Below are positions 982 through 15,398 of a stretch of 15,398 bases of DNA, in pieces; the first letter of the stretch is position 1; the number at the start of each line of letters is the position of its first letter. The DNA is taken from NCBI GenBank assembly GCA_043798915.1, contig JAZDOG010000069.1:1-15398 (forward strand), read 5' to 3'. The position numbers were made by a program, and so were the translations under genes. The notes beneath the pieces are model-generated. The model saw nothing but the letters and a program-made list of their open reading frames with translations, ran no database searches and was not told the DNA's origin. This stretch comes from Pseudomonadota bacterium. GTDB taxonomy: Bacteria; UBA10199; 2-02-FULL-44-16; JAAZCA01.

Positions 982-1429
982 TGTCTTCCTTGTCGGCCCC
1001 CCAGAGGAATTGCCAGTACGGTTTTTCGTAGAGGATGAGATTCATCCGGAATCGCCCCGTTCCTGTGATCTCCGGCGGCACCTCGCCGGCATCGAGGAGG
1101 ATCAGGCCGGTCTGGGGGTCGATCGATCGGATCTCAGTCGCCGTCCTGAAGATATTGCCGCTCGGAAGGACGAATTCCGCGGACAGGTGGGTTGCCGAGT
1201 GGAGGCGCATCGTGTCCTTGCGCGCGATCTGCAGCTCGATGCTTCTCGATTCAGGCGATGTCAGCGCGCCGGATCCCTCGACCCTGCATGTGAAGGTCGT
1301 GGCCATGAAGGCCACCCCGCCCACCGCCGTGGCTATGCAGACGGCCAGGCCGAAGAGGATCACTCCGCGGACGCGCAGGCGCAGCTCATGTGCCGAAAAA
1401 GAGTCTATGAAACGGTCGAAAAGATTCAT
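968..1429 (-). CDS. Hypothetical single-pass membrane protein, possibly a minimal membrane-fusion/accessory subunit of the ABC exporter
   Basis: 153 aa. Hydrophobic segment GVILFGLAVCIATAVGGVAFMA, then VEGSGAL, a beta-rich body and a C-terminal ILYEKPYWQFLW. ATGA overlap with the ABC stop and a 14-bp overlap with the hydrolase start indicate a real coupled gene. Confidence 0.7.
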   Translation of the reverse strand: MNLFDRFIDSFSAHELRLRVRGVILFGLAVCIATAVGGVAFMATTFTCRVEGSGALTSPESRSIELQIARKDTMRLHSATHLSAEFVLPSGNIFRTATEIRSIDPQTGLILLDAGEVPPEITGTGRFRMNLILYEKPYWQFLWGADKEDNAGE

Positions 1430-3657
1430 GCCTTTCCTCCCGGGCCGAAGCGCTTTGCGAGCTCTTCCTCGTCGATCACAAGCGAGAGGAGACCCGGTTC
1501 CATCGCATTGGCGGCATCCGTCAGGGCGTGGAGTATCTCCTCCGGCGTCCTGAAGAGCCGTTTCGATACGCGCGTGCCGATGAAGCGGAGGTCCTCTTTG
1601 GCCAAGGCGTATGGCAGATCCGTCCCCGCCGGCCTCGGCATCAGACTGATCATGCGATTGAAGAAGAGCTTCAGCTGGTCGGAGTCTATCTCAGGCAGAA
1701 TGATAAGGATGATGTCCCTGTCGAGGATCGCCGAGTTGTCGCCCATGCGGATGCTCTTCTTGAGCAGAAAGTCCACGCCATCCATAAACTTCCCCGCCGC
1801 ATCCGTTCCTTCGGCGGATTCGATCTTCTCATAGCTTTGCACCTTGAGCACAGCCAGGCAGAATTTCGAGCCATAGCGCGCGGATCGCTCGAGCTCCAGG
1901 TCCATCTGCTGGCGGAACGTGGCGAGCCCTCCGAACTGCCGCCAGTAGAAGCGATAGAATGCGCCGCGCCGCTCGATCAGGTCTTCGAACTGCCCCTCCT
2001 CAACGAATTTGCCGTTCTCCAGGACCAGGATGTTGTCGGCCGTCTTTATCGTGGAGAGGCGGTGGGCTATCACGATCACCGTCTTGGTCCTGCGGAGCGC
2101 CGATATCGCATCCTGTATGCGGTATTCGCTTTCGGCGTCGAGGGCGGATGTCGCTTCGTCAAAGACGATGATCTGCGGCTCCCGGAGAAGGGTGCGCGCT
2201 ATCGCCAGCCGCTGGCGCTGTCCGCCCGAGAGGTATTCGCCGCCAGGCCCCACTGGCGCGTCGTAGCCGCCCGGGAGCCTCTCGATGAAGTCGTGCGCGC
2301 CGGCCTGCCTCGCTGCCCGCATCGCGTCGCCGCGCTCCTTCCCCTCGTTTCCGTAGAGGATGTTGTCCATCACCGTGCCGTCGAAGAGCGTGGAATCCTG
2401 CGACACTATTCCGACCTTGCCCCTCAAGTCGTGGATGCGCACCTCGGAGATGTTCTGGCCGTCCACGATGATCATGCCATGGGAGGGGTCGAAAAACCTG
2501 AGCAGCAGATTGACGAGGGTGCTCTTGCCGCTGCCCGATCCTCCGACTATGGCCGTCATGTTCTTCGAGGGGAACTTCACCTCGATATCGTGCAGGACCT
2601 CTTCGTCTTGTTCGGCATAGGCAAACGAGAGATGGGCGGTTTCGATGGAGCCGTCTTTGATCGAGAGGTCCTTCCGGCCGGCATCCTGAGTCTCTTCAGT
2701 CGGCTGTTCCAGAATTTCGTCCAGGCGCCGCATCGAGACGAGGTTTGTCTTCCACTGCGTAAAGAGGTTGATGAACGAGCGCACCGGATCGCCCAGCTGG
2801 TCTATATAGAGCATCAGCGCGACGATCTCGCCGATCGAAAGCGTGCCCCGCACGACCTGGTAGCCCAGATACCATGTCAGGAAGACGCTCCACATCTGGA
2901 GCGTTATCGAGTTCGTGAATGTCTGGATGACATTGAGGAGCCTGCCCTTGACCGCCACCTTGTAGCGGCGCCTGATGAGCCCCCCGAAGGAGAGCGTCTC
3001 GTTCCTCTCCTGCCCGAAGGCCTTTATCGTCTTGATGCTGGAGAGTTTCTCCTGCGCGCGGCTGTAGATGTCGGACTCGACGGCGATGGATTGGCCTTCG
3101 ATGTCGGCGATCCGCCCGGCGTAGAACCGCGCCTCGAGTATATAGAGGGGGATCGACACGAGCGCCAGGAGCGTCAGCTCCACATTTATGAACAGCGATA
3201 TCGCAAGAATGACGAAGAAACGCCCGCCGTCGATGATTATTATGGGAAGGACGTTGGTGACCATCCCCACCGTCTTCGCGACGTCGTCGGTGATGCGGAT
3301 CATCAGATCGCCGGTCTTCTTGCTGAGATGGAACTTCAAGGGGAGGCACTGTATCGCGTGGAAGACCTTCTCCGTGAGATTGGCGTTCGCCTCCTGATGG
3401 ATGTATATCTGAAGATAATCCGAGGCGACGCTCAGGAAAAAATAAAGGAAATACACGACGACTATCGCCACAATCGTCGTGTTGAGCAGCGTCAGGTCGC
3501 GATAGGGATATGCGTAGTCGAAGAGCGCCCGCGTGAAGAGCGGGGTCGTCAGCCCCAAAAGGGTCATGCCGATATCGAACAGGATGGCGATCAGGAACGT
3601 GCCCAGATAGGGTCTGAGAAGGCGATGATACTTTTGCAATACCTTGATATCGCTCAT
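1426..3657 (-). CDS. ABC exporter (TMD+NBD fused) with C-terminal degenerate GGDEF-like domain
   Basis: 743 aa. N-terminal multi-TM domain, Walker A GGSGSGKS, Q-loop VSQD, signature LSGGQRQR, Walker B IIVFDE and H-loop IAHRLS. An extra ~165 aa C-terminal extension follows the GGDEF-domain pattern. Confidence 0.92.
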   Translation of the reverse strand: MSDIKVLQKYHRLLRPYLGTFLIAILFDIGMTLLGLTTPLFTRALFDYAYPYRDLTLLNTTIVAIVVVYFLYFFLSVASDYLQIYIHQEANANLTEKVFHAIQCLPLKFHLSKKTGDLMIRITDDVAKTVGMVTNVLPIIIIDGGRFFVILAISLFINVELTLLALVSIPLYILEARFYAGRIADIEGQSIAVESDIYSRAQEKLSSIKTIKAFGQERNETLSFGGLIRRRYKVAVKGRLLNVIQTFTNSITLQMWSVFLTWYLGYQVVRGTLSIGEIVALMLYIDQLGDPVRSFINLFTQWKTNLVSMRRLDEILEQPTEETQDAGRKDLSIKDGSIETAHLSFAYAEQDEEVLHDIEVKFPSKNMTAIVGGSGSGKSTLVNLLLRFFDPSHGMIIVDGQNISEVRIHDLRGKVGIVSQDSTLFDGTVMDNILYGNEGKERGDAMRAARQAGAHDFIERLPGGYDAPVGPGGEYLSGGQRQRLAIARTLLREPQIIVFDEATSALDAESEYRIQDAISALRRTKTVIVIAHRLSTIKTADNILVLENGKFVEEGQFEDLIERRGAFYRFYWRQFGGLATFRQQMDLELERSARYGSKFCLAVLKVQSYEKIESAEGTDAAGKFMDGVDFLLKKSIRMGDNSAILDRDIILIILPEIDSDQLKLFFNRMISLMPRPAGTDLPYALAKEDLRFIGTRVSKRLFRTPEEILHALTDAANAMEPGLLSLVIDEEELAKRFGPGGKA

Positions 3658-3669
3658 AAGTTGGACCGG

Positions 3670-3698
3670 ACTATATCTGCAATAAAAGGCCTGGGCAA
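3670..3698 (-). promoter_or_regulatory. Putative sigma70-type promoter for the ABC operon
   Basis: Minus strand TTGCCC-N17-TATAGT, ending 12 nt before the ATG at 3657. No Shine-Dalgarno in between. Confidence 0.45.
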
Positions 3699-3719: not shown

Positions 3720-4814
3720 TTATACATTGAATCTGAAGTGCACGACGTCCCCCTCTTTTATCACATAGTCATGTCCCTCGACACGGACGCGACCATCCTC
3801 GCGCAATTTCTGCTCCGAGCCGGCCTTCAGGAGATCTTCGTACGGATAGACCTCCGCGCGGATGAATCCCTTTTCAAAATCGGTGTGGATCTTCCCGGCC
3901 GCCTGAGGGGCCTTCGTCCCGGCCCTGATGGTCCATGCGCGGGCCTCAGGTCCGTCCTTCGTGAAGAACGTGATGAGGTTCAAGAGCTTGTAGGCGGCGT
4001 GGATGAGGCGCGGCAGTCCCGGTTCCGAAAGCCCCAGGTCGTCCAAGAAGGCCCTCTCCTCGTCGTCGGAGAGATCGGCCAGCTCATCCTCGATGGAGCC
4101 GCAAATCTCTATCGCCGGCGCGCCCTCTTTCTCCGCATATGCGATAGTCTGCTTCACCCTCTCGGAGGGATGCTTCACGTCGTCCTCGTTCACGTTGAGG
4201 ACGTAGAGGAGCGGTTTGATCGTCAGGAGCGCGAGCGGCGAGGCGATTTCAATTTCCTCTCCCGCTAACCCAGCGTTTCTGGCGGGGGTCCCTTTTTCAA
4301 GGGCGGCCTTGAGCTTCTCCAGGACCGGCATCTCCTTCCGGGCTTCCTTGTCGCCGGTCTTCGCCGCTCCGCGTATCTTGTCTACTCGCTTCGTGACTAT
4401 CTCGAGGTCGGCGAGTGAGAGCTCCGTCGCCACAATCTCGATGTCGTGGACGGGATCGATCTCGGCGTAGCTGTGCACGACGTTTCCCGCGTCGAAACAG
4501 CGCACGACGTGGGCGACCGCATCCACCTCGCGTATGAAACCCAGGAACTTGTTCCCGAGGCCCTCGCCCTTGTGCGCGCCTTCGACGAGCCCTGCGATGT
4601 CCACGAACTCGACCTGCGCCGGCACCACGCGCTCGGGCTTGAATATCGCGGCGATACGGTCAAGCCGACTGTCCGGCACGGCCACCATGCCGGTGTGATG
4701 GTCCTTGGTGCAGAACGGATAGTTCTCGGCAGGGACGTGCGCCGCCGTCATTGCGTTGAAGAGCGTCGATTTGCCGACGTTTGGCAGACCCACTATGCCG
4801 CAGTTGAACCCCAT
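3720..4814 (-). CDS. ychF: Redox-regulated ribosome-binding ATPase YchF (Obg family)
   Basis: 364 aa with GIVGLPNVGKST, NYPFCT, FVDIAGLV..A.KGEGLGNKFL, KAPQAAGKIHTDFEKGFIRAEV and the C-terminal FRFNV. Confidence 0.98.
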   Translation of the reverse strand: MGFNCGIVGLPNVGKSTLFNAMTAAHVPAENYPFCTKDHHTGMVAVPDSRLDRIAAIFKPERVVPAQVEFVDIAGLVEGAHKGEGLGNKFLGFIREVDAVAHVVRCFDAGNVVHSYAEIDPVHDIEIVATELSLADLEIVTKRVDKIRGAAKTGDKEARKEMPVLEKLKAALEKGTPARNAGLAGEEIEIASPLALLTIKPLLYVLNVNEDDVKHPSERVKQTIAYAEKEGAPAIEICGSIEDELADLSDDEERAFLDDLGLSEPGLPRLIHAAYKLLNLITFFTKDGPEARAWTIRAGTKAPQAAGKIHTDFEKGFIRAEVYPYEDLLKAGSEQKLREDGRVRVEGHDYVIKEGDVVHFRFNV

Positions 4815-4926
4815 GGTTCGCGAGCCTGCCAGAGGGGGGTGTAGAATTCAATGGGAATGTCGGCATTTTTTGCCTTGGGTTCATTTCCGCGATGAGTTAA
4901 CATCAGCAGGGAAAGGGGAGGTTGGA

Positions 4927-6264
4927 ATGAAATTCTTCTGCAAATTTCCCTTGGGCCTGCTTGCCGCGATTGCCTTTGCCGCCTGCGGGAGTTCGGCGAC
5001 GTTCAGCGTGAGCTCTGTGACGCCCTCCGGGGGCTCGACGCTCGGGGGCACGAGCGTCACGATTTCCGGCCACGGATTCACGGCCGGGGCGACCGTTAAA
5101 TTTGGCAGCCGCTCCGCCACGGTCGTGAGCATTTCGAGCACCTCCATCTCCGCGACCGCGCCCCAATCGGACAGCACCACCGGCGCAGTGGACGTGACCG
5201 TCACACTCTCGACCGGCTCGAGCTCAAAGCTCTCGGGCGGCTACACCTACACGAGCATGCTCGCGGTGGCGAACCGGGATTCGGCAGAGGTCGACAACTT
5301 CAGCGTCAACCGGCAGACGCCGTCGATAACGAAGTTTTCAACCTCGCCGATCTCGGTCGGCGGGATGTTGCCGCGCTCCATCGGCGTCGATGGAGCGGCG
5401 GCGTTGATGTTCGTCGTCAACTTCGGCTCCGCGAACGTGTCGTCATTCCTGTATTCGATGGCGGATGGCAAGATGACCGCGGCGACGGGTTCGCCGTTCT
5501 CGGTCAGCGGCACGGGCCCTGTTGCGGTGGCGGTGGATACGGTCAACCACCTCATCTTCACCGCCAACTCGACCTCCAACGATGTGAGTTCGCTGTCGTA
5601 TGATGCTTCGACCGGCATCCTGACGCTCGTCGAGACGGAGGTTGTGGTCTCCTCCGGCAGGGCTCCGGCCGATGTCGCCGTGGACCCGGTCCTGAGGCTC
5701 CTCTTCGTGCCGAACTCCGACTCCAATACGGTCGCTGTCTTCTCCTACACTGCAGCCGGCGACATGACCCAGGTTGGCACAGGCACTGGCGCCGGCGGCA
5801 CCACGCCATATGCGGTGATTCTCGACACGGCCCGTATGCTCGCCTTCGTGGCGCTCAAGGGGTCGAACACCATCTCGGTCTTCTCATACAAATCGGACGG
5901 CACGATTACGGCTGTATCGGGCTCGCCCTTTTCCGCCACCGGGACCGGGCCGGCCGACATCGCCGTCGACGCTGCGTCGAGCCTCATTTTCGTCGTCTAC
6001 TCCTCGAGCGCTACGGTCGGGGCATACAGCTATGACACAGCGGGTTACCTGACTCCTGTGACGGACACCCCGCCCGGGACGGACGGGACAACGCCGCTGT
6101 CGCTCGATATCGACACGTCGAACCATGTCGTCTTCGTGGCCAATACAGGTTCCAGCGTCATACAGCTTTTCACCTACGACCAGTCGTCGGGCGATCTCAC
6201 CGCCGCGGGCAACACGGTCTCTTCCGGCGGGACCTCGCCTTATTGGGTTGCGTTCATACCGTGA
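4927..6264 (+). CDS. Lipoprotein with IPT/TIG domain and lactonase/YVTN-like beta-propeller
   Basis: The true start is likely ATG 4927, after a GGGGAGG RBS. Signal peptide MKFFCKFPLGLLAAIAFAA-C (lipobox). IPT/TIG motif VTPSGGSTLGGTSVTISGHGF...GAVDVTV. About seven repeats of the type GSPF..GTGP..xAVD....FVxN..SN.VSxF.Y. Confidence 0.85.
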   Translation: MKFFCKFPLGLLAAIAFAACGSSATFSVSSVTPSGGSTLGGTSVTISGHGFTAGATVKFGSRSATVVSISSTSISATAPQSDSTTGAVDVTVTLSTGSSSKLSGGYTYTSMLAVANRDSAEVDNFSVNRQTPSITKFSTSPISVGGMLPRSIGVDGAAALMFVVNFGSANVSSFLYSMADGKMTAATGSPFSVSGTGPVAVAVDTVNHLIFTANSTSNDVSSLSYDASTGILTLVETEVVVSSGRAPADVAVDPVLRLLFVPNSDSNTVAVFSYTAAGDMTQVGTGTGAGGTTPYAVILDTARMLAFVALKGSNTISVFSYKSDGTITAVSGSPFSATGTGPADIAVDAASSLIFVVYSSSATVGAYSYDTAGYLTPVTDTPPGTDGTTPLSLDIDTSNHVVFVANTGSSVIQLFTYDQSSGDLTAAGNTVSSGGTSPYWVAFIP

Positions 6265-7893: not shown

Positions 7894-10800
7894 ATGAGCA
7901 ATAAAGCGATTATTAAATTCAAAAATATTCTTGAGAATTATGCCGAAAAAGCGACCTCTATCTTTAAGCTACCAGTTTCTTTTAACCCCGAAGACCAACT
8001 CAAAAGTTTAGCGGCAGATATATTCAAACAAGGCGGAGAGCTGCTTGATTTTAACGTCAATGTTGTTACCGAAGTGACTCCTGAAGGACTTCATGGCCGA
8101 CCCGACATGGGTGTTACGGTAAACGCACTCCTTGCAGGGCACGTGGAGCTCAAGGCCCCGGGTAAAGGGGCCGAGCCGAAGAAATTCAATGAGGCCGACA
8201 AGAAGCAATGGGAAAAGTTCAAGTATTTGCCGAATGTCATTTATACCGACGGAAATGAATGGGCCTTGTATCGTAATGGCGATAGAGTAGGAAAACTTAT
8301 TAGATTTTCAGGTGATGTTTTCGTTGACGGGAAAGCAGCTGTTGATGAGAAGAATGCGCAGGCTTTGTACGCGGTGATAAATGATTTCCTGCGGTGGGAG
8401 CCTATAGTACCATCAACGCCTCGCGCGCTCGCGGAAATGCTCGCGCCAATCTGCCGGTTGCTGCGGTTGGATGTTCTCGCCGCATTGCAGGACAATAATT
8501 CGAATCTGAGTACCCTCGCAGTTGATTGGCGCCAATATCTCTTCCCCAATGCCGATGATAAGCAGTTTGCAGACGCGTATGCGGAGACGTTGACCTACGC
8601 CCTCCTGCTGGCGAGGCTTTCAGGGGAACGCCACATATCTGTCCCGAACGCTGTTCAGACAATCAAAAAAGGCCATGCCCTTCTCTCCGAAGCACTGAAG
8701 ATACTGGGCGATGAGGCCGCGCGAAAAGAAATTTCAATTTCGGCAGGTCTCATGGAGCGTGTCATCGGGGCGGTGGATGTGGCAGCCCTCACCAAGAGAG
8801 GCAAGGAGGATCCTTGGCTCTATTTCTACGAAGATTTCCTCGCTGTCTACGATCCCCAAATGCGGAAGTCACGCGGTGTGTACTACACGCCGGTGCCCGT
8901 TGTGCAGGCCCAAGTTCGGCTCGTTGCGCAACTACTTGAGGAACGGTTTAATGCCGAATTTTCTTATGTAGATCCTCGGGTGATCATGCTCGATCCGGCC
9001 GCCGGGACTGGAACGTATATCTTGGCCGCTGCCAAGTATGCAATTGACAAGATAGCCGATGCAAGGGGTGAAGGCATGCGGAAGCAGGCGGCGACCGCTG
9101 CGGCTAATAACCTCCACGCATTCGAGATACTAGTTGGCCCCTATGCAGTGGCGCATCTGCGACTCACCCAGCAAATTTTTGCGGAAGGCGGGACGCCACC
9201 TAAGGACGGCGTCCATGTTTATCTCACCGACACGCTCGAATCACCGGAAGCTGCCCCGCCCGGCCATCTCCCGCTAGCGCTGAAACAGCTGGGTGAGGAA
9301 CATCTGCGAGCCCAAGAGGTCAAGGCTAAGACGCCCGTGTTCGTCTGCATGGGCAATCCACCTTACGACCGCCAGTTGATTGGGATAGAAGACCAAGAGA
9401 TCGTACATCGCAAGGGTGGCTGGGTTCGCTATGGTGGCGGTCACAAGAACGACCGACCGATTCTTCAGGACTTCATCGATCCTCTGAAGAAGCTAGGGCT
9501 CGGGGCCCACGCGAAAAACCTATACAATGACTACGTCTATTTCTGGCGGTGGGCGCTGTGGAAGGTCTTCGAGAGTAAAAAGGGCCCGGGCGTCGTCAGC
9601 TTTATCACGGCATCGTCGTATCTGCGGGGCCCCGGGTTTTCTGGCATGCGCCGGGTGATGCGCGAGACGTTTGACGAACTGTGGATCATTGACCTTGAAG
9701 GAGATAACCTCGGGGCGAGGAAGACGGAAAATGTTTTTGCGATCCAGACGCCCGTAGCGATCGCGATTGGCGTCCGCTTTGGTGAACCAAGCCCAGACAA
9801 AATCGCAAAAGCACATTATACTAAAATCGAAGGCACCCAGAAGGAAAAATTCGACACCTTGAGTGGCATTGCTAAATTTGATGATCTTGAATGGAGCGAT
9901 TGTCTCTCTGGTTGGGCAGAACCGATATTGCCCCGGAGCGATAAAGATTATTGGCGGTGGCCGTTATTGACGGATGTGTTTCCGTGGCAGGAATGTGGGA
10001 TGCAATTCAAGCGGTCATGGCCTATAGCGGAATCAAAAGCTGTCCTTGAGAAAAGGTGGAAAGCGCTCTTAAAATCTGATGATAAAATACTATTATTTAA
10101 GGAGACGCGAGACCGTAAGATTAACAAAGAATATCCTTCGCTGACTCATTCGGGCGTCAAGCTGACAGCCATTTCAAAGCTCACACAGGATAAAGTCTTT
10201 CCCGATATCGTAAGGCTAGGGTACAGGAGCTTCGATCGCCAATGGGCCATTCTCGATAATCGCGTCGGCGATTACCTCAGACCGACGCTGTGGCGATCGT
10301 ATGGTAATCAGCAAGTTTTTTTGACAAGTCTTTTGACGGATGTTCTGGGTGAAGGTCCGGGAGCGGTTGTAGTGGCTTATATGCCAGATATGCATCATTT
10401 CTGTAATAGAGGCGCGAGAGATATAATACCACTTTGGAAAGACGCTGACGAATCGCGGCCAAATATAACACAGGGAATATTAGAAGCACTCAAAAAACAC
10501 TACGGCAAGCGAATCAAAGCTGAGGAACTGTTTGCTTACTGCTACGCGCTCCTCGCAACGCCGCGCTATGTCGAAACATTCTGGGATGAGTTGTCCATAC
10601 CCGGCCCACGAATCCCCATAACGAAAGACGCGAAGCTCTTTACTGAAGCTGTCGATCTCGGTCGCCGTCTTATCTGGCTCCACACCTTCGGGGAGCGGTT
10701 CGTCCCTAAAGGAAAGAAGCGCGGTCAGGTCCCGCAAGGAACGGCAAGGTGCAAGGTCGGCACCCCGGCGACACAAGAGGAATATCCAGACTCATATTCT

Positions 10801-11202
10801 TACGACGAAGCAGCGCATGAACTTCGCGTCGGCAAGGGTGTCTTTGAACGTGTCCGTCCCGAGGCGTGGCATTTCAGCGTCTCGGGGCTGCAGGTTGTCA
10901 AGTCGTGGCTCAATTATCGTATGCGAAAGCGCGCTGGAAAGAAATCCTCCCTCCTCGACGAAATTCGCCCAGAACGCTGGGAATTCGACGGAGAACTGCT
11001 TGATCTGCTATGGGTCCTGGATGCGACTGTTAATCACTATCCAGATATGGAGCGCATCTTTAAGGTGGTCCTCAAGAGTGCTCTCTTCCATGAGGGTGAT
11101 TTTCCCAAACCGATCGAAGCGGAGCGGAGTAATGCCCCTGCCGCAGTTAGATTTCAGGCGGCTGTGCGTGACTATATGCATAAGGCTGGTGATGATAATT
11201 AA
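7894..11202 (+). CDS. Bifunctional restriction-modification enzyme: PD-(D/E)xK nuclease + N6-adenine MTase + type-ISP-like C-terminal specificity domain (type IIG-like, no helicase)
   Basis: 1102 aa. N-terminal GRPDMGV...HVELKAP, YFYEDFL..YDP..RK.RGVYYTP, motif I LDPAAGTGTY, motif IV GNPPY (9355-9366), NLYNDYVYFWRWA and YRSFDRQW, plus C-terminal PRIPIT and W.FSVSG.QVVKSWL.YR. No Walker A or DEAH helicase motifs seen. Confidence 0.88.
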   Translation: MSNKAIIKFKNILENYAEKATSIFKLPVSFNPEDQLKSLAADIFKQGGELLDFNVNVVTEVTPEGLHGRPDMGVTVNALLAGHVELKAPGKGAEPKKFNEADKKQWEKFKYLPNVIYTDGNEWALYRNGDRVGKLIRFSGDVFVDGKAAVDEKNAQALYAVINDFLRWEPIVPSTPRALAEMLAPICRLLRLDVLAALQDNNSNLSTLAVDWRQYLFPNADDKQFADAYAETLTYALLLARLSGERHISVPNAVQTIKKGHALLSEALKILGDEAARKEISISAGLMERVIGAVDVAALTKRGKEDPWLYFYEDFLAVYDPQMRKSRGVYYTPVPVVQAQVRLVAQLLEERFNAEFSYVDPRVIMLDPAAGTGTYILAAAKYAIDKIADARGEGMRKQAATAAANNLHAFEILVGPYAVAHLRLTQQIFAEGGTPPKDGVHVYLTDTLESPEAAPPGHLPLALKQLGEEHLRAQEVKAKTPVFVCMGNPPYDRQLIGIEDQEIVHRKGGWVRYGGGHKNDRPILQDFIDPLKKLGLGAHAKNLYNDYVYFWRWALWKVFESKKGPGVVSFITASSYLRGPGFSGMRRVMRETFDELWIIDLEGDNLGARKTENVFAIQTPVAIAIGVRFGEPSPDKIAKAHYTKIEGTQKEKFDTLSGIAKFDDLEWSDCLSGWAEPILPRSDKDYWRWPLLTDVFPWQECGMQFKRSWPIAESKAVLEKRWKALLKSDDKILLFKETRDRKINKEYPSLTHSGVKLTAISKLTQDKVFPDIVRLGYRSFDRQWAILDNRVGDYLRPTLWRSYGNQQVFLTSLLTDVLGEGPGAVVVAYMPDMHHFCNRGARDIIPLWKDADESRPNITQGILEALKKHYGKRIKAEELFAYCYALLATPRYVETFWDELSIPGPRIPITKDAKLFTEAVDLGRRLIWLHTFGERFVPKGKKRGQVPQGTARCKVGTPATQEEYPDSYSYDEAAHELRVGKGVFERVRPEAWHFSVSGLQVVKSWLNYRMRKRAGKKSSLLDEIRPERWEFDGELLDLLWVLDATVNHYPDMERIFKVVLKSALFHEGDFPKPIEAERSNAPAAVRFQAAVRDYMHKAGDDN

Positions 11203-11483
11203 CCAGGTAAACCCCCGGCTCTGCCGGGGGACTCCCAGAGTTTGACATTTGCGGGAGTATGTATTTTTGACGAGCCTGTTATACAAAGTGGTCACCGTGT
11301 TTGTCATCCCAGCGAAAGCTGGGATCCCTGGTACTTGATGACATGGGATTCCTGCTTTCGCAGGAATGACAAACGAATATGACAAAACAGATTTTAAAGT
11401 TTTTGATTTTGAACGATTGCGATTAGGCCCCTTTGAGGGGCCAGCAGTCGTAAAGCCCCCCCGCTTTGCGGGGGGATACTTAC
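11200..11483 (+). mobile_element. Non-autonomous IS200/IS605-like element (both ends present, transposase absent)
   Basis: Left end TAACCAGGTAAA-CCCCCGGC-TCT-GCCGGGGG-ACTCCCAGAGTTTGACA. Right end GGCCCCT-TTG-AGGGGCC...TAAAG-C-CCCCCCGC-TTT-GCGGGGGG-ATACTTAC. Subterminal hairpins with no terminal IR and no target duplication. Excision rebuilds a site that matches 14833-14872. Boundaries are +/-1 bp. Confidence 0.72.
11299..11374. repeat. REP doublet (REPIN/BIME-like)
   Basis: GTCATCCCAGC-GAAA-GCTGGGATCCC (11303-11328) and an inverted partner (11345-11370; reverse complement GTCATTCCTGC-GAAA-GCAGGAATCCC). The outer IR extends to GTTTGTCAT/ATGACAAAC. Confidence 0.88.
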
Positions 11484-11520
11484 TCCGGGGACACGAGGCT
11501 TGATTCGTGGAGTCGCCGAT
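11484..11520 (+). repeat. Direct-repeat junction site, copy A
   Basis: TCCGGGGACACGAGGCTTGATTCGTGGAGTCGCCGAT. Positions 11487-11520 are 26/34 identical, ungapped, to 14839-14872. Contains CACGA-N8-TCGTG. Confidence 0.65.
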
Positions 11521-11584
11521 CCCTGGTAAACATTTGAAGCTCCTGATTTTCAGGATTGTTTGTTAGACAAAGAATAACAACTCT

Positions 11585-13162
11585 ATGCCCCTGCCCATCA
11601 ACATCCCTGACGTCCTCCACGGAAAAACCGTGGAATGGGAACGTCTTGAATTTAAGAGGGGATGGAATCCCGAAGATGTCCTGCATACGATGTGTGCGTT
11701 TGCCAATGATGTTCACAATCTTGGCGGAGGGTATGTTTTTATCGGCATTGAAGAGAAGGACGGAAGTCCTGTATTGCCCCCTAAGGGAATTCCTGCGAGC
11801 CAAATTGATAAAATACAAAAAGAGATATTGAATCTCGGTCATCATGCCATACAACCAAGTTATCACCCTCTGACGGCGCAGTATCAAGTCGACGGAAAAA
11901 ATATCATGGTTATTTGGGTGCCGGGCGGAGAAACGCGGCCATATAAAGCCAAGGCGAGTCTTTCGAAAAAATCGAAAGAATGGCGGTATTTTATCCGAAA
12001 ACAGTCGAGCACGGTCCGGGTAAAAGGAACAGATGAAAGGGATTTGATCCGCCTTGCCAATACGGTGCCATTTGACGACCGCTACAATCAATCGGCGACG
12101 GTGGAAGACCTTTCTCAAAGACTGATGGAGGAGTTTTTAAGGGAAATCGGCAGCGATCTTTTAAAAGAGGCAAAGAATCTTTCAATAGAAGCTTTAGGAA
12201 GGCAAATGAATGTTGTGGGCGGGCCGTCCGAGTCAATATTTCCTAAAAATGTTGGGCTGCTTTTTTTTAACGAACATCCGGATCGATTCTTTCCAGTCAC
12301 TCAAATTGATGTGGTGTGGTTCCCAGAGGGTGCAGGTGGGGATCGTTTTGAAGAAAAGATATTTAAAGGGCCTCTTTCGCGGATGACCAGGGACTCGCTC
12401 GCGTATATTCAAAGAACATTTCTCAAAGAAACGGTTATCAAGCACCCTGACAGGGCGCAGGCTGAACGGTTCTGGAATTTTCCTTATGCCGCGATCGAGG
12501 AAGCGATTGTCAATGCGGTCTATCATCGTTCCTATGAAGTGAGAGAGCCAATCGAAGTGCGAATTTCGCCAGAAGACTTTGTGGTTTTAAGCTTTCCGGG
12601 GCCGGATCGCTCAATTCGTATGGAGAGCCTTCGTGCCGGGAAAGCGGTCAGCCGTTGTTATCGGAATCGCCGTATCGGAGAATTTTTAAAAGAGCTGGAT
12701 ATGACCGAAGGGCGTTCCACCGGTATTCCAATAATTTTAAGAGCCATGAAGAACAATGGTTCTCCAAAACCTGAATTTGAGACGGATGAGGACCGCCTGC
12801 ATTTTTTGATCCGCCTGCCTATTCACCCCAAGGCAAATAAACCGACGGTGGAGCAATCAGGCGCACAACAAGAGTCAGGGGCCCAGTCAGGGGCCCAGTC
12901 AGGGGCCCAGTCAGGGGCCCAGTCAGAGCAGGTATTACATGCGCTTGAAGTATCCCCCTTATCTATGTTTGAAATCGTTCATGCGCTGAAGTTAAAAAGC
13001 AAAACTGGTGCGTTAAAGAGGGCGGTGAATGAATTGTTCTCCGAAAAATACATTGAATACACTATCCCCGACAAGCCTAATAGCCGTCTGCAGAAATATC
13101 GGCTCACGGAAAAAGGCCGCAGGTGGCTCAAATCCCAAGGGGAGATAGGCAGCAAAAAATAG
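11585..13162 (+). CDS. AlbA_2 (Schlafen-like) + HATPase_c_4-like + C-terminal winged-HTH protein
   Basis: 525 aa. AlbA_2 motifs EWERLEFK, CAFAND....GGGYVFIGI. RecG-C/HATPase_c_4-like motifs YAAIEEAIVNAVYHRSY and YRNRRIGEFLKEL.MTEGRSTGI. The C-terminal IEYTIPDKPNSRLQKYRLT resembles the HTH tail seen on Fic-like proteins. Confidence 0.87.
   Translation: MPLPINIPDVLHGKTVEWERLEFKRGWNPEDVLHTMCAFANDVHNLGGGYVFIGIEEKDGSPVLPPKGIPASQIDKIQKEILNLGHHAIQPSYHPLTAQYQVDGKNIMVIWVPGGETRPYKAKASLSKKSKEWRYFIRKQSSTVRVKGTDERDLIRLANTVPFDDRYNQSATVEDLSQRLMEEFLREIGSDLLKEAKNLSIEALGRQMNVVGGPSESIFPKNVGLLFFNEHPDRFFPVTQIDVVWFPEGAGGDRFEEKIFKGPLSRMTRDSLAYIQRTFLKETVIKHPDRAQAERFWNFPYAAIEEAIVNAVYHRSYEVREPIEVRISPEDFVVLSFPGPDRSIRMESLRAGKAVSRCYRNRRIGEFLKELDMTEGRSTGIPIILRAMKNNGSPKPEFETDEDRLHFLIRLPIHPKANKPTVEQSGAQQESGAQSGAQSGAQSGAQSEQVLHALEVSPLSMFEIVHALKLKSKTGALKRAVNELFSEKYIEYTIPDKPNSRLQKYRLTEKGRRWLKSQGEIGSKK
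12873..12926 (+). repeat. 12-bp in-frame tandem repeat (AGTCAGGGGCCC x4.5) encoding SGAQ
   Basis: Four perfect units at 12873, 12885, 12897 and 12909 plus AGTCAG. A degenerate SGAQ unit lies just upstream. Confidence 0.95.
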
Positions 13163-13204
13163 GGTAAGGTTTGAAGAATTACGGAATGTGCAGCGTAAGG
13201 AGAA

Positions 13205-13546
13205 ATGAAAATGGGACGGCATATCGACATCAACGGTTTGTCTGAAGACCGGCTGATCGAGCTTAACCACCGCATCATTGAAAGACTCAAGTTTTTATCG
13301 AGGACTCGCAGCGTGAAACAGATGGGCAAATTCAACGTCGGCGACCGTGTGTGGTTCGAGGGACACGATGGCGAAAAGATTCGCGGGATTGTTACGCGCC
13401 TCAACATCAAAACGGCGAGTGTGATAACGAGTGCTCACAGGTGGAACGTCTACCCGCGATTTCTTCATAAGGCAGATGAAGTTGACACAGACGATGCCGC
13501 AAGGGATATCCAGGAACCGCTTAAGCTGATAGAATTCAAGAGGTAA
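13205..13546 (+). CDS. Hypothetical protein, probable SH3/KOW-like beta-barrel
   Basis: 113 aa with an AAGGAG RBS. An N-terminal helix (LSEDRLIELNHRIIERLKFL) is followed by FNVGDRVWF...GIVTRLNIKTASV...WNVYPRFL. Confidence 0.75.
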   Translation: MKMGRHIDINGLSEDRLIELNHRIIERLKFLSRTRSVKQMGKFNVGDRVWFEGHDGEKIRGIVTRLNIKTASVITSAHRWNVYPRFLHKADEVDTDDAARDIQEPLKLIEFKR

Positions 13547-13659
13547 GAAATGAATTTCGGTTTCATGAAACAGAATGAGGCATTCAGGGTCTTTCAGAAG
13601 GGGCTGATACCGTATATTCCCCACGGCGGGTCGAAACAACAGTGACGGAAACATTGCAC

Positions 13660-14172
13660 ATGACGACCGATTATCAAAGGCAGCTGGAAAAAAGGGTGGC
13701 GAGGGCGGCAGGCGAGGCGGTCGATGACCACGGTTATGTCAGTGCGATCGAAGTTTTCACTGGCATCGGGTGGCTCGATCCGGTTCGCATCGCAGACTGG
13801 AGAAAAGGCCGGATACCGTATCTGGAGAAGGTCATCCAGACAAACTTGAGCAAGATATCCCGGGCCATGAAGTCGTTTCGTGCGTGGGCCGAGCGGGCGG
13901 GCCTCAAACCGAGCGAGACCGCCTACCTGGCGAGGACCTGCGGGCCCAAACGGCATCTTCGTTTCAGTATAAGCGGCGATCCACACATCGAAAAGGCCTG
14001 GCGGACGCACTTTGTTTCGAAACGCTTGTCGGAATCGAAACAAAAGCGGCTCCATGAACGATTGGGTTGTTTCACCGAACTGGTGGGCGGAAAAAAACAG
14101 GGTAAAGTATGGGAGGCGTTTTATGACTCGGATCAAAGCCGACATGGATTCCCCGGCGATGGATTACCGTAA
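13660..14172 (+). CDS. Conserved-looking hypothetical protein (C-terminus possibly read-through or degenerate)
   Basis: Start at ATG 13660 or GTG 13642. The protein-like core GYVSAIEVF..GWL....DWRKGRIPYLEKVIQTNLSKIS...LKPSETAY...LRFS.SGDP.IEKAWRTHFVS runs to ~14063. The tail overlaps the next gene by 50 bp. Confidence 0.7.
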   Translation: MTTDYQRQLEKRVARAAGEAVDDHGYVSAIEVFTGIGWLDPVRIADWRKGRIPYLEKVIQTNLSKISRAMKSFRAWAERAGLKPSETAYLARTCGPKRHLRFSISGDPHIEKAWRTHFVSKRLSESKQKRLHERLGCFTELVGGKKQGKVWEAFYDSDQSRHGFPGDGLP

Positions 14173-14397
14173 TATGTCGGATGAAGATTTATTCCTGCTC
14201 CCGCTGACGGAGGAGGATCGCCTCCCGCGCGATGCGGCGGACGAGATCATCAGGCGCGGCGATGTGAGCGTTGGCGCGATGAGGGCAATCATCGACGAGG
14301 AGTCGTTGTGGAAGGGCCGTCTTCCTGAATGGTGGGCAACCGTCCATGTGGCAGCGGTAAGAAATTCAAGAAGTGTTGTCTTGAAAAGTTGCACTGA
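14123..14397 (+). pseudogene. Internally deleted SEC-C-motif gene (DUF1186-like N-terminus fused out of frame to a SEC-C C-terminus)
   Basis: GGGAGG RBS before ATG 14123. The first frame reads ...MSDEDLFLLPLTEEDRLPRDAADEIIRRG...WWATVH. From 14341 a different frame reads RPCGSGKKFKKCCLEKLH*, a SEC-C motif lacking its first Cys. Confidence 0.75.
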
Positions 14398-14442
14398 CAG
14401 GCTTGAAAAAAGGGGACGTTCTCCGAGCCGCCCGCCCTCAAA

Positions 14443-14525
14443 GGTGCGAGCTGGCTTCACGGGATCCCCGCGGCGCCGCTCGGTTGCCACGATCTTCATG
14501 GCACAACCCGCGCCTCGGGATGACA
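14443..14525 (-). repeat. 83-bp extended REP-like element, right copy of the long-range inverted repeat
   Basis: Reverse complement is 75/83 identical to 7669-7751. Confidence 0.9.
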
Positions 14526-14553
14526 GAGGGGAATCCCTAGCCATGGAGTGATG

Positions 14554-14604
14554 GCGCATAAACTCGAAAAGAAGATCAGGGATGACTGGAAAACTATTGT
14601 ATAA
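14554..14604 (+). pseudogene. Possible 3' remnant of a type I R-M methyltransferase (HsdM-like C-terminal helix)
   Basis: Reads AHKLEKKIRDDWKTIV* and stops 6 nt before the RhuM start. Resembles HsdM tails, and RhuM genes often lie within hsd operons. Only 16 aa. Confidence 0.3.
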
Positions 14605-14610
14605 AAACTT

Positions 14611-14937
14611 ATGAAAAAAATACCAGATAATCAGATCGCTTTCTATCAATCTCCGGACGGCTCGGTAAATATTGAAGTATTATTTGCCGAAGAGAATATT
14701 TGGTTAACTCAGAAAAAAATGGCCGAGCTTTTTGATTGCTCGACAGATAATGTTTCACTCCACTTAAAGAATATTTATAAGGAAAATGAGGTTGATCAAA
14801 AATCAACTACCGAGGAATTCTCGGTAGTTCGAAATTCGGGGGGCACGAGACTGAATTCGTGGAACCACCGGTTACAGTATGTAGCTCAGGGCGCGGCAAT
14901 TCGTGACGGAGCAAGGAGCCTGGAGTCTATAATATGA
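14611..14937 (+). pseudogene. Truncated RhuM-family protein (N-terminal DNA-binding portion only)
   Basis: FYQSPDGSVNIEVLFAEENIWLTQKKMAELF.....VSLHLKNIY.E.E....TTEEFSVVR is the RhuM N-terminus. The expected continuation (EG.R.V.R....YNLDAII.VGYRV) is replaced at ~14833 by unrelated sequence. Confidence 0.8.
14833..14872 (+). repeat. Direct-repeat junction site, copy B
   Basis: AATTCGGGGGGCACGAGACTGAATTCGTGGAACCACCGGT begins at the point where RhuM similarity ends. Contains CACGA-N8-TCGTG. Confidence 0.65.
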
Positions 14938-15398
14938 AACTCGTCAAACGATTGGATAATCAATTCGCCGAAGTTGTAAGGATGATTCATGAGGCCCGGT
15001 ATAATGCTATCAAGAGCGTCAACACCGAGCTGGTCAAACTATATTGGAGCATAGGCGGGTATATCAGCAAAAAGATCAAATCTGCAGAATGGGGCGATGC
15101 TGTTGTGGACAGCCTTGCCGATTTCATTCAAACTAACCACCAGGAATTTAAGGGTTTTACGCGACGGGGCCTTTACAGGATGCGCCAGTTTCATGAAACA
15201 TACCCGCAGAAGAAATTTGTGTCGGCAGTGCTGACACAAATTAGCTGGACCAACCATCTGCTCATACTCTCTAAAACTAAATCAATAGAGGAGCGTAAAT
15301 TCTATCTGATGTTATCCGTGAAGGAAAAATATAGTTCGCGCGAGCTTGAGCGTCAGATAGACAGCGGTTATTATGAACGAGCAATGCTTTCCAGGAAA
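14934..15398 (+). CDS. YhcG/DUF1016-family PD-(D/E)xK nuclease-domain protein, 5' part (runs off the window)
   Basis: Not in the ORF track because it has no stop. Manual translation: MKLVKRLDNQFAEVVRMIHEARYNAIKSVNTELVKLYWSIGGYIS...WGDAVVDSLADFI...KGFTRRGLYRMRQFHETY...ISWTNHLLILSKTKSIEERKFY...SSRELERQIDSGYYER. GGAG RBS at 14922-14925. Confidence 0.9.
   Translation, partial: MKLVKRLDNQFAEVVRMIHEARYNAIKSVNTELVKLYWSIGGYISKKIKSAEWGDAVVDSLADFIQTNHQEFKGFTRRGLYRMRQFHETYPQKKFVSAVLTQISWTNHLLILSKTKSIEERKFYLMLSVKEKYSSRELERQIDSGYYERAMLSRK

Follow-up and report, generated by a model that had tools for sequence, protein, structure and literature searches.

A conserved ATP-binding cassette exporter fused to a predicted dead GGDEF domain is a candidate cyclic di-GMP-gated pump

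Why would an ATP-binding cassette (ABC) exporter carry, behind its ATPase domain, a GGDEF domain that appears unable to make cyclic di-GMP (c-di-GMP)? This question is raised by a gene in a stretch of 15,398 nucleotides (here, the window), which spans positions 1 to 15,398 of contig JAZDOG010000069.1 from a Pseudomonadota bacterium (assembly GCA_043798915.1; GTDB phylum UBA10199). The gene encodes a single protein, P0001, in which a transmembrane domain, an ATPase domain, and the GGDEF domain follow one another (Table 1). An initial annotation, made from the sequence alone, had proposed that the tail is a noncatalytic GGDEF-like domain that retains the RxxD motif of the allosteric c-di-GMP site (I-site) and serves the transporter as a receptor or docking module, by analogy with PelD. 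We find that the fusion is real and conserved. The dead tail probably binds c-di-GMP; once bound, the messenger would tie together the two tails of a predicted homodimer and in this way gate the pump.

The tail can be assigned to the GGDEF fold by several comparisons of sequence and model. Pfam GGDEF (PF00990) matches residues 580 to 673 with 25.4 bits in the whole protein and 28.3 bits when the domain is taken alone, against a cutoff of 23.8. About 95 residues of the domain can be aligned gap-free with the diguanylate cyclase 3IGN, and the family profile of the domain reaches 3IGN with an expectation value (E) of 5e-17 and DgcR (6ZXM) with 6e-16, with RxxD in register. An AlphaFold model reproduces the GGDEF order of strands and helices, at a predicted local distance difference test (pLDDT) score of 77 to 91 by block over the domain. 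Element order and profile register agree, which bears out the GGDEF-like domain that had been placed after the ATPase domain. The annotated register of RMGD (residues 637 to 640), five residues, and then DRDII (residues 646 to 650) is likewise correct.

The residues needed for catalysis have been lost, as had been noted. K605, Q607, and E613 occupy positions that read D, D, and N in all 40 active cyclases of the phylum, K605 standing in for a metal-binding Asp and E613 for the guanine-binding Asn, and the GG(D/E)EF signature is intact in none of 51 distant homolog rows. This distant set consists of the 52 among the best 150 cluster representatives that cover the ATPase tail and the domain, less P0162, an active cyclase; it was chosen with a profile of the GGDEF domain, and counts drawn from it are partly circular. 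The alignments support a description of the domain as a dead cyclase with a retained I-site.

The DgcR residues were placed on this I-site through the family-profile alignment, after subtraction of 20 residues, the shift that the R206A/D209A variant chains imply. The further arginines of known sites (PleD R390; DgcR R163 or PleD R313) are present as R668, R594, and R591. We take R591, three residues before R594, to occupy the position of PleD R313. R591, R594, R637, and D640 are invariant in 58 close homologs, RxxD thus being kept in 58/58, and R668 is found in all 57 that reach that position. Among the distant rows, 47/51 keep RxxD and 37/51 keep all five residues.

Within the phylum, the fusion occurs in 26 of 93 genomes, as a single copy in each, and every copy has all five residues. 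A membrane-domain profile built from 16 carriers recovers the same 26 genes across the 93 genomes and no GGDEF-less ortholog; its next three matches (E of 3e-38 and weaker) are other exporters. The domain otherwise varies widely: mean identity among the 26 copies is 33%, with a minimum of 14%, and only 8 domain columns are invariant, 5 of which are the I-site residues; of 42 charged positions, only 6 never change. These counts are no statistical test, as the sequences are related and not independent. We take the conservation of RxxD, in all close homologs and all phylum copies, to exceed chance. Three homologs of about 900 amino acids (P0005, P0009, and P0020) have a second, more diverged dead GGDEF domain in tandem, in which the five residues are also kept.

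Ahead of the tail, P0001 has the features of an ABC exporter, with fused ABC_membrane and ABC_tran domains and intact Walker A (residues 372 to 379), Q-loop (Q420), signature (476 to 480), Walker B (497 to 501), and H-loop (H532) motifs. Because this gene is the only PF00664 match in 17/26 carrier genomes, the exporter likely works as a homodimer. The AlphaFold monomer has a mean pLDDT of 76 and a predicted template modeling score of 0.53, with the ATPase domain and the joint poorly modeled. That joint is itself conserved, with FGG in 58/58 close homologs and, in the distant alignment, G576 in 42/52 rows and G577 in 40/52. The usual DxLT turn is absent from it. Many GGDEF domains are preceded by a conserved Asp-Arg hinge (PMC3032553). 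No such hinge lies ahead of the exporter's GGDEF domain, where the FGG joint stands instead.

We modeled two copies of residues 576 to 735 with four c-di-GMP molecules, the ligand itself being unscored. The complex scored 0.72 versus 0.01 for the best of 3 controls, and the score mark used is reached by 20/30 solved pairs and 1/23 solved single chains. The runs agreed in 100% of contacts, at a pLDDT of at least 91. Residues 591, 594, and 595 of one copy contact residues 637 to 639 and 655 to 656 of the other, which is a joining of secondary to primary site, and this interface accounts for the invariance of Y595 and P655. The messenger could be supplied from within the cell, as the source genome encodes two intact GGEEF cyclases and all 93 phylum genomes have GGDEF matches. 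The source genome also encodes a protein (G000:C12:12307-13983, + strand) in which a GDNEF signature and RxxD precede an apparent HD-GYP-type domain; this protein is possibly a second dead-GGDEF sensor.

These features suggest the following mechanism. The exporter would act as the predicted homodimer, and stacked c-di-GMP would bridge R637, D640, and R668 of one subunit and R591 and R594 of the other, the arrangement seen when DgcR and PleD are inhibited. Such a cross-link would fix the distance between the two ATPase domains, since their last helix passes via the conserved FGG joint into the helix that bears R591 and R594. By analogy with the action of cyclic di-AMP (c-di-AMP) on OpuA, clamped tails may stall transport rather than stimulate it, although we favor inhibition only slightly. 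The small partner protein encoded by the overlapping gene would sit on the membrane domain as an adaptor without a hairpin. Such an adaptor would fall short of a TolC channel, and export would therefore end in the periplasm for a cargo that is most likely a peptide or protein.

Table 1. Positions in the window of the fusion gene, its parts, and other features
Feature	Position	Strand	Basis or remark
ABC exporter-GGDEF fusion gene (P0001), 743 amino acids	1426..3657	-	Open reading frame translation and Pfam
Transmembrane domain ABC_membrane, residues 22-291	2785..3594	-	Pfam PF00664, E 3.7e-37
ATPase domain, about residues 336-575	1933..2652	-	PF00005, E 4e-30 (ABC_tran residues 355-504)
FGG joint, residues 575-577	1927..1935	-	Last ATPase helix runs straight into first GGDEF helix
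Predicted catalytically dead GGDEF domain, about residues 576-737	1447..1932	-	Pfam, alignments, AlphaFold
Secondary I-site arginines R591 and R594	1876..1887	-	R594 aligns with DgcR R163
Primary I-site RxxD, R637-M-G-D640 (DgcR R206xxD209)	1738..1749	-	Profile alignment
DRDII in place of the GGDEF signature, residues 646-650	1708..1722	-	Variable across the family
Extra primary-site arginine R668 (DgcR R237, PleD R390)	1654..1656	-	Profile alignment
Coupled partner gene, 153 amino acids	968..1429	-	4-base overlap with the exporter stop
Weak sigma-70-like promoter match, 9/12	3670..3698	-	Between ychF and the exporter gene
IPT/TIG domain and lactonase-type beta-propeller protein, probably exported	4756..6264	+	Pfam
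N6-methylase with Type ISP specificity domain, no helicase match	7894..11202	+	Pfam
AlbA_2/HATPase_c_4/Fic-like_C protein	11585..13162	+	Pfam

The partner, which the initial annotation had missed, is the sole conserved neighbor of the fusion. Of 35 loci examined, 32 have a small membrane protein with the same layout downstream of the exporter, as do 24 of 26 phylum genomes; of the remaining three loci, one ends at a contig edge with the partner start visible and two (L045 and L047) have no partner. In its model (pLDDT 88), the protein consists of an amphipathic helix, one membrane helix, a beta-barrel, and a short C-terminal helix. A profile of the long forms detects it in 18/93 genomes, all of them fusion carriers. 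The partners assigned in distant lineages have only 64 to 84 amino acids and were recognized solely from where they lie and how they are laid out. In structural comparison, the adaptor BesA ranks first (Z 8.5; root mean square deviation 4.0 over 99 aligned residues), and EmrA and MacA (Z 7.7) align across their lipoyl/hairpin insert. The lipoyl and hairpin domains of a full adaptor are absent from the modeled 153-residue partner. Adaptors contact TolC via the hairpin, and BesA is an exception that has none (PMC8277102). An Atlas search places the partner near short HlyD/LcnD-like proteins, with template modeling scores of 0.56 to 0.67 to short HlyD-named clusters. HlyD_3 is matched in 1/14 partner members (E of 0.014), and a comparison with the sequences of solved structures returned nothing significant. 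We read the partner as likely a reduced HlyD/LcnD-type adaptor without a lipoyl or hairpin domain.

What the exporter carries is less easily read from its core. P0001 scores best with the NCBIfam model of MsbA (399 bits), nearly level with HlyB (388 bits). A whole-protein Foldseek search returned ABC cores only, with PCAT1 at rank 1, MsbA just behind, and HlyB among the first 15. The core lies at a similar distance from all three, and this search does not separate them. An Atlas search with the whole exporter found ordinary exporters only, and a plasmid search matched only the ABC core in the matches listed (8 of at least 5000). The N-terminal C39 domain of a peptidase-containing ABC transporter is missing (no PF03412 match), and the membrane domain begins at residue 22. 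We found no TolC or RTX-type cargo gene in the fusion neighborhoods, though four TolC-like genes lie elsewhere in the source genome, and a simple pattern scan for RTX cargo gave no open reading frame with two or more GGxGxD repeats. The cargo is most likely a peptide or protein, because the partner is adaptor-like and the nearest nonfused paralog of the exporter core in the source genome sits in a peptide-type cluster. That paralog ends the cluster (G000:C99:3118-10260, - strand), in which inspection by eye finds three radical S-adenosylmethionine (SAM) open reading frames, a PqqD-like gene, a signal-peptidase-like gene, and a short precursor-like open reading frame.

Several observations weigh against binding and gating by c-di-GMP. 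RxxD and the equivalent of R594 are present in 40/40 active cyclases of the phylum, and that of R591 in 33/40; the first two could therefore be retained by descent and serve in part a structural role. Loss of catalysis does not guarantee that a GGDEF domain binds the messenger, TmoK being a counterexample (PMC4877007). The pLDDT falls below 50 at residues 565 to 575 of the monomer model, around the joint, and the PleD and DgcR dimers are already solved, so that the pass of the complex model, with its unscored ligand, may merely echo those structures. No cargo gene is linked to the fusion in the neighborhoods examined. The partner matches the adaptor fold only moderately well, with unrelated barrels tying with BesA (Z 8.0 versus 8.5), and no Foldseek match was found for it at an E of 0.001. 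Because the active cyclases keep RxxD, that motif by itself, on which the initial annotation leaned, is no evidence of a receptor; the case for a retained I-site is strengthened by the invariance of R668, R591, and R594. The argument for a receptor is the persistence of RxxD in these alignments while every catalytic position drifts. The position of R668 is the only one that separates fusions (R in 26/26) from active cyclases (8/40, a sample drawn mostly from two or three orthologous groups). In a rival reading, the domain binds no messenger and is a constitutive dimerization or stability module under the ATPase domains, its conserved residues holding the fold or the interface. That nonbinding dead domains exist, that arginine and aspartate at these positions occur commonly across GGDEF domains, and that invariant Y595 and P655 sit in the modeled protein-protein interface all fit such a module. 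We consider it unlikely, since four arginines face to face would be expected to pair badly unless an anionic ligand lay between them, R668 lies outside the named protein contacts yet is invariant and enriched over active cyclases, and the residue set matches the DgcR and PleD ligand contacts exactly.

Harder to reconcile with a pure gating role are copies in which the site is kept and the ATPase is broken. ATPase motifs are broken in 14 of 85 full-length homologs, a set enriched for divergent proteins, with Walker A missing from 9; all 14 keep the five I-site residues, which gating alone leaves unexplained. Among phylum copies, 23/26 have full motifs and 3/26 are broken. The motifs are lost or damaged in full-length L045 (G009:C12), L084 (G032:C32), and L036 (G003:C1), whose genomes are 98 to 100% complete and have the damaged copy as their only PF00664 match. 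A heterodimer with an intact subunit was considered as an explanation and rejected, as no second PF00664 gene was found in any of the three genomes. The complex might then be chiefly a membrane-anchored c-di-GMP receptor or scaffold. Its tail would bind the messenger and recruit or cross-link a second protein, such as an active cyclase by way of that cyclase's own I-site, while pumping would be a minor function that was lost on several occasions. The lack of an intact partner subunit and an adaptor reduced to about 70 amino acids in many lineages agree with this, and a quick tree, built from the membrane and GGDEF domains of 48 among the 85 homologs, needs 4 changes to the broken state. That tree carries long-branch warnings, however, and its long branches meet; the long membrane-domain branches of the broken copies also fit decay, which is the plain alternative. 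Full motifs in 71/85 homologs, the source copy included, and the lack of any identified partner protein leave a scaffold doubtful, though a more serious contender than a messenger-free module. An exporter in the course of turning into a c-di-GMP receptor is similarly a tentative idea: the cross-linked tail would be under selection while about four lineages discard the ATPase, leaving a ligand-gated scaffold or a passive conduit with a miniature adaptor. Least probable of all, and in our view very unlikely, is an MsbA- or PglK-like flippase that c-di-GMP gates and that moves a lipid or lipid-linked glycan, or else a PelD-like polysaccharide regulator. The near-level MsbA matches in NCBIfam and Foldseek hint at it, and the I-site receptors PelD and BcsE do control polysaccharide export (PMC7439463). 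The adaptor-like partner, however, is typical of peptide and protein exporters, the nearest nonfused paralog lies in a radical-SAM peptide-type cluster, and no glycosyltransferase is a conserved neighbor. A lipid A flippase in particular was rejected, with P0001 far below the MsbA cutoff (TIGR02203, 602 bits), LpxC in 0/93 genomes, and LpxK in 0/5. The phylum, with neither gene found in the genomes searched and four TolC-like genes in the source genome, is probably a diderm lineage without lipid A.

The surroundings of the fusion gene, beyond its partner, offer little that is constant. No polysaccharide or peptide cluster surrounds it, and its neighbors are housekeeping genes whose identity differs outside the order. 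An isochorismatase-family gene (394-981, - strand) overlaps the partner gene and is nearby in 9/21 clustered loci, all within the order. Four class-level loci (L079, L080, L082, and L083) have tetratricopeptide-repeat genes adjacent to the fusion or close by, coupled upstream in L079. The promoter match upstream of the exporter gene is not above chance (3 found versus 1.5 ± 1.2 in shuffles), and a search for sequencing runs that could show expression gave none. The remainder of the window includes a defense-island-like stretch (7894-15398, + strand), closed by a DUF1016 gene that is cut by the contig end. The carriers are metagenome-assembled genomes recorded as Deltaproteobacteria, Myxococcales, Bdellovibrio, or Pseudomonadota, and distant fusion members are named from Omnitrophota and Bdellovibrionota.

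Automatic database names of the homologs already mention both domains, and we found no description of an ABC exporter-GGDEF fusion in the openly available literature searched. Many bacteria have several c-di-GMP synthases and few known receptors (PMC12448109). If the preferred reading is true, here is a receptor built into a transporter, which would bring an ABC exporter under direct c-di-GMP control as a counterpart of c-di-AMP on OpuA and would reuse the self-inhibition clamp of cyclases as a mechanical switch. Although the organisms are uncultured, the fusion can be tested in a laboratory host, because it comprises just two genes in one unit, the residues to mutate are exactly defined, and naturally ATPase-dead variants can act as controls.

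Among known systems, PelD, BcsE, and SgmT (PMC7439463, PMC4877007) share with the exporter tail a dead active site and a retained RxxD. In the exporter, by contrast, the domain is fused to an ABC ATPase and has a full GGDEF fold with both primary and secondary sites, which suits self-cross-linking, and no polysaccharide synthase or kinase is linked to it. The proposed PelD analogy therefore holds for the binding site and fails for the genetic setting, where a small adaptor-like membrane protein is the conserved neighbor in place of a polysaccharide operon. The product-inhibited dimers of DgcR (6ZXM) and PleD (2V0N) use the same five positions and join secondary to primary site as in the exporter model (PMC8041772); they are active enzymes immobilized by their own product, whereas the exporter lacks catalysis and its predicted load is an ATPase dimer. 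In OpuA, c-di-AMP-bridged CBS tails hold the ATPase domains and block transport (PMC7673798). OpuA and the exporter are alike in having a cyclic-dinucleotide sensor, predicted in the exporter, fused after the ATPase domain, but OpuA is an importer that pairs CBS domains with c-di-AMP, and its sensor is not homologous to the GGDEF domain found here. PCAT1 and HlyB/HlyD have the core fold and a coupled adaptor-like gene in common with the exporter, which differs in having no C39 or C39-like domain, no lipoyl or hairpin domain in its adaptor, and no linked TolC or cargo. The LapD/LapG-LapBCE adhesin system also places a type I secretion output under c-di-GMP via a degenerate-domain receptor, but in that system the messenger is bound by the EAL domain of LapD, which is not part of the transporter and targets a protease at a step after secretion (PMC3032553, PMC11139211). 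The exporter-GGDEF fusion resembles PelD and BcsE at the binding site and has the layout of OpuA, and it belongs to neither of these systems, nor to the PCAT, type I secretion, or MsbA systems.

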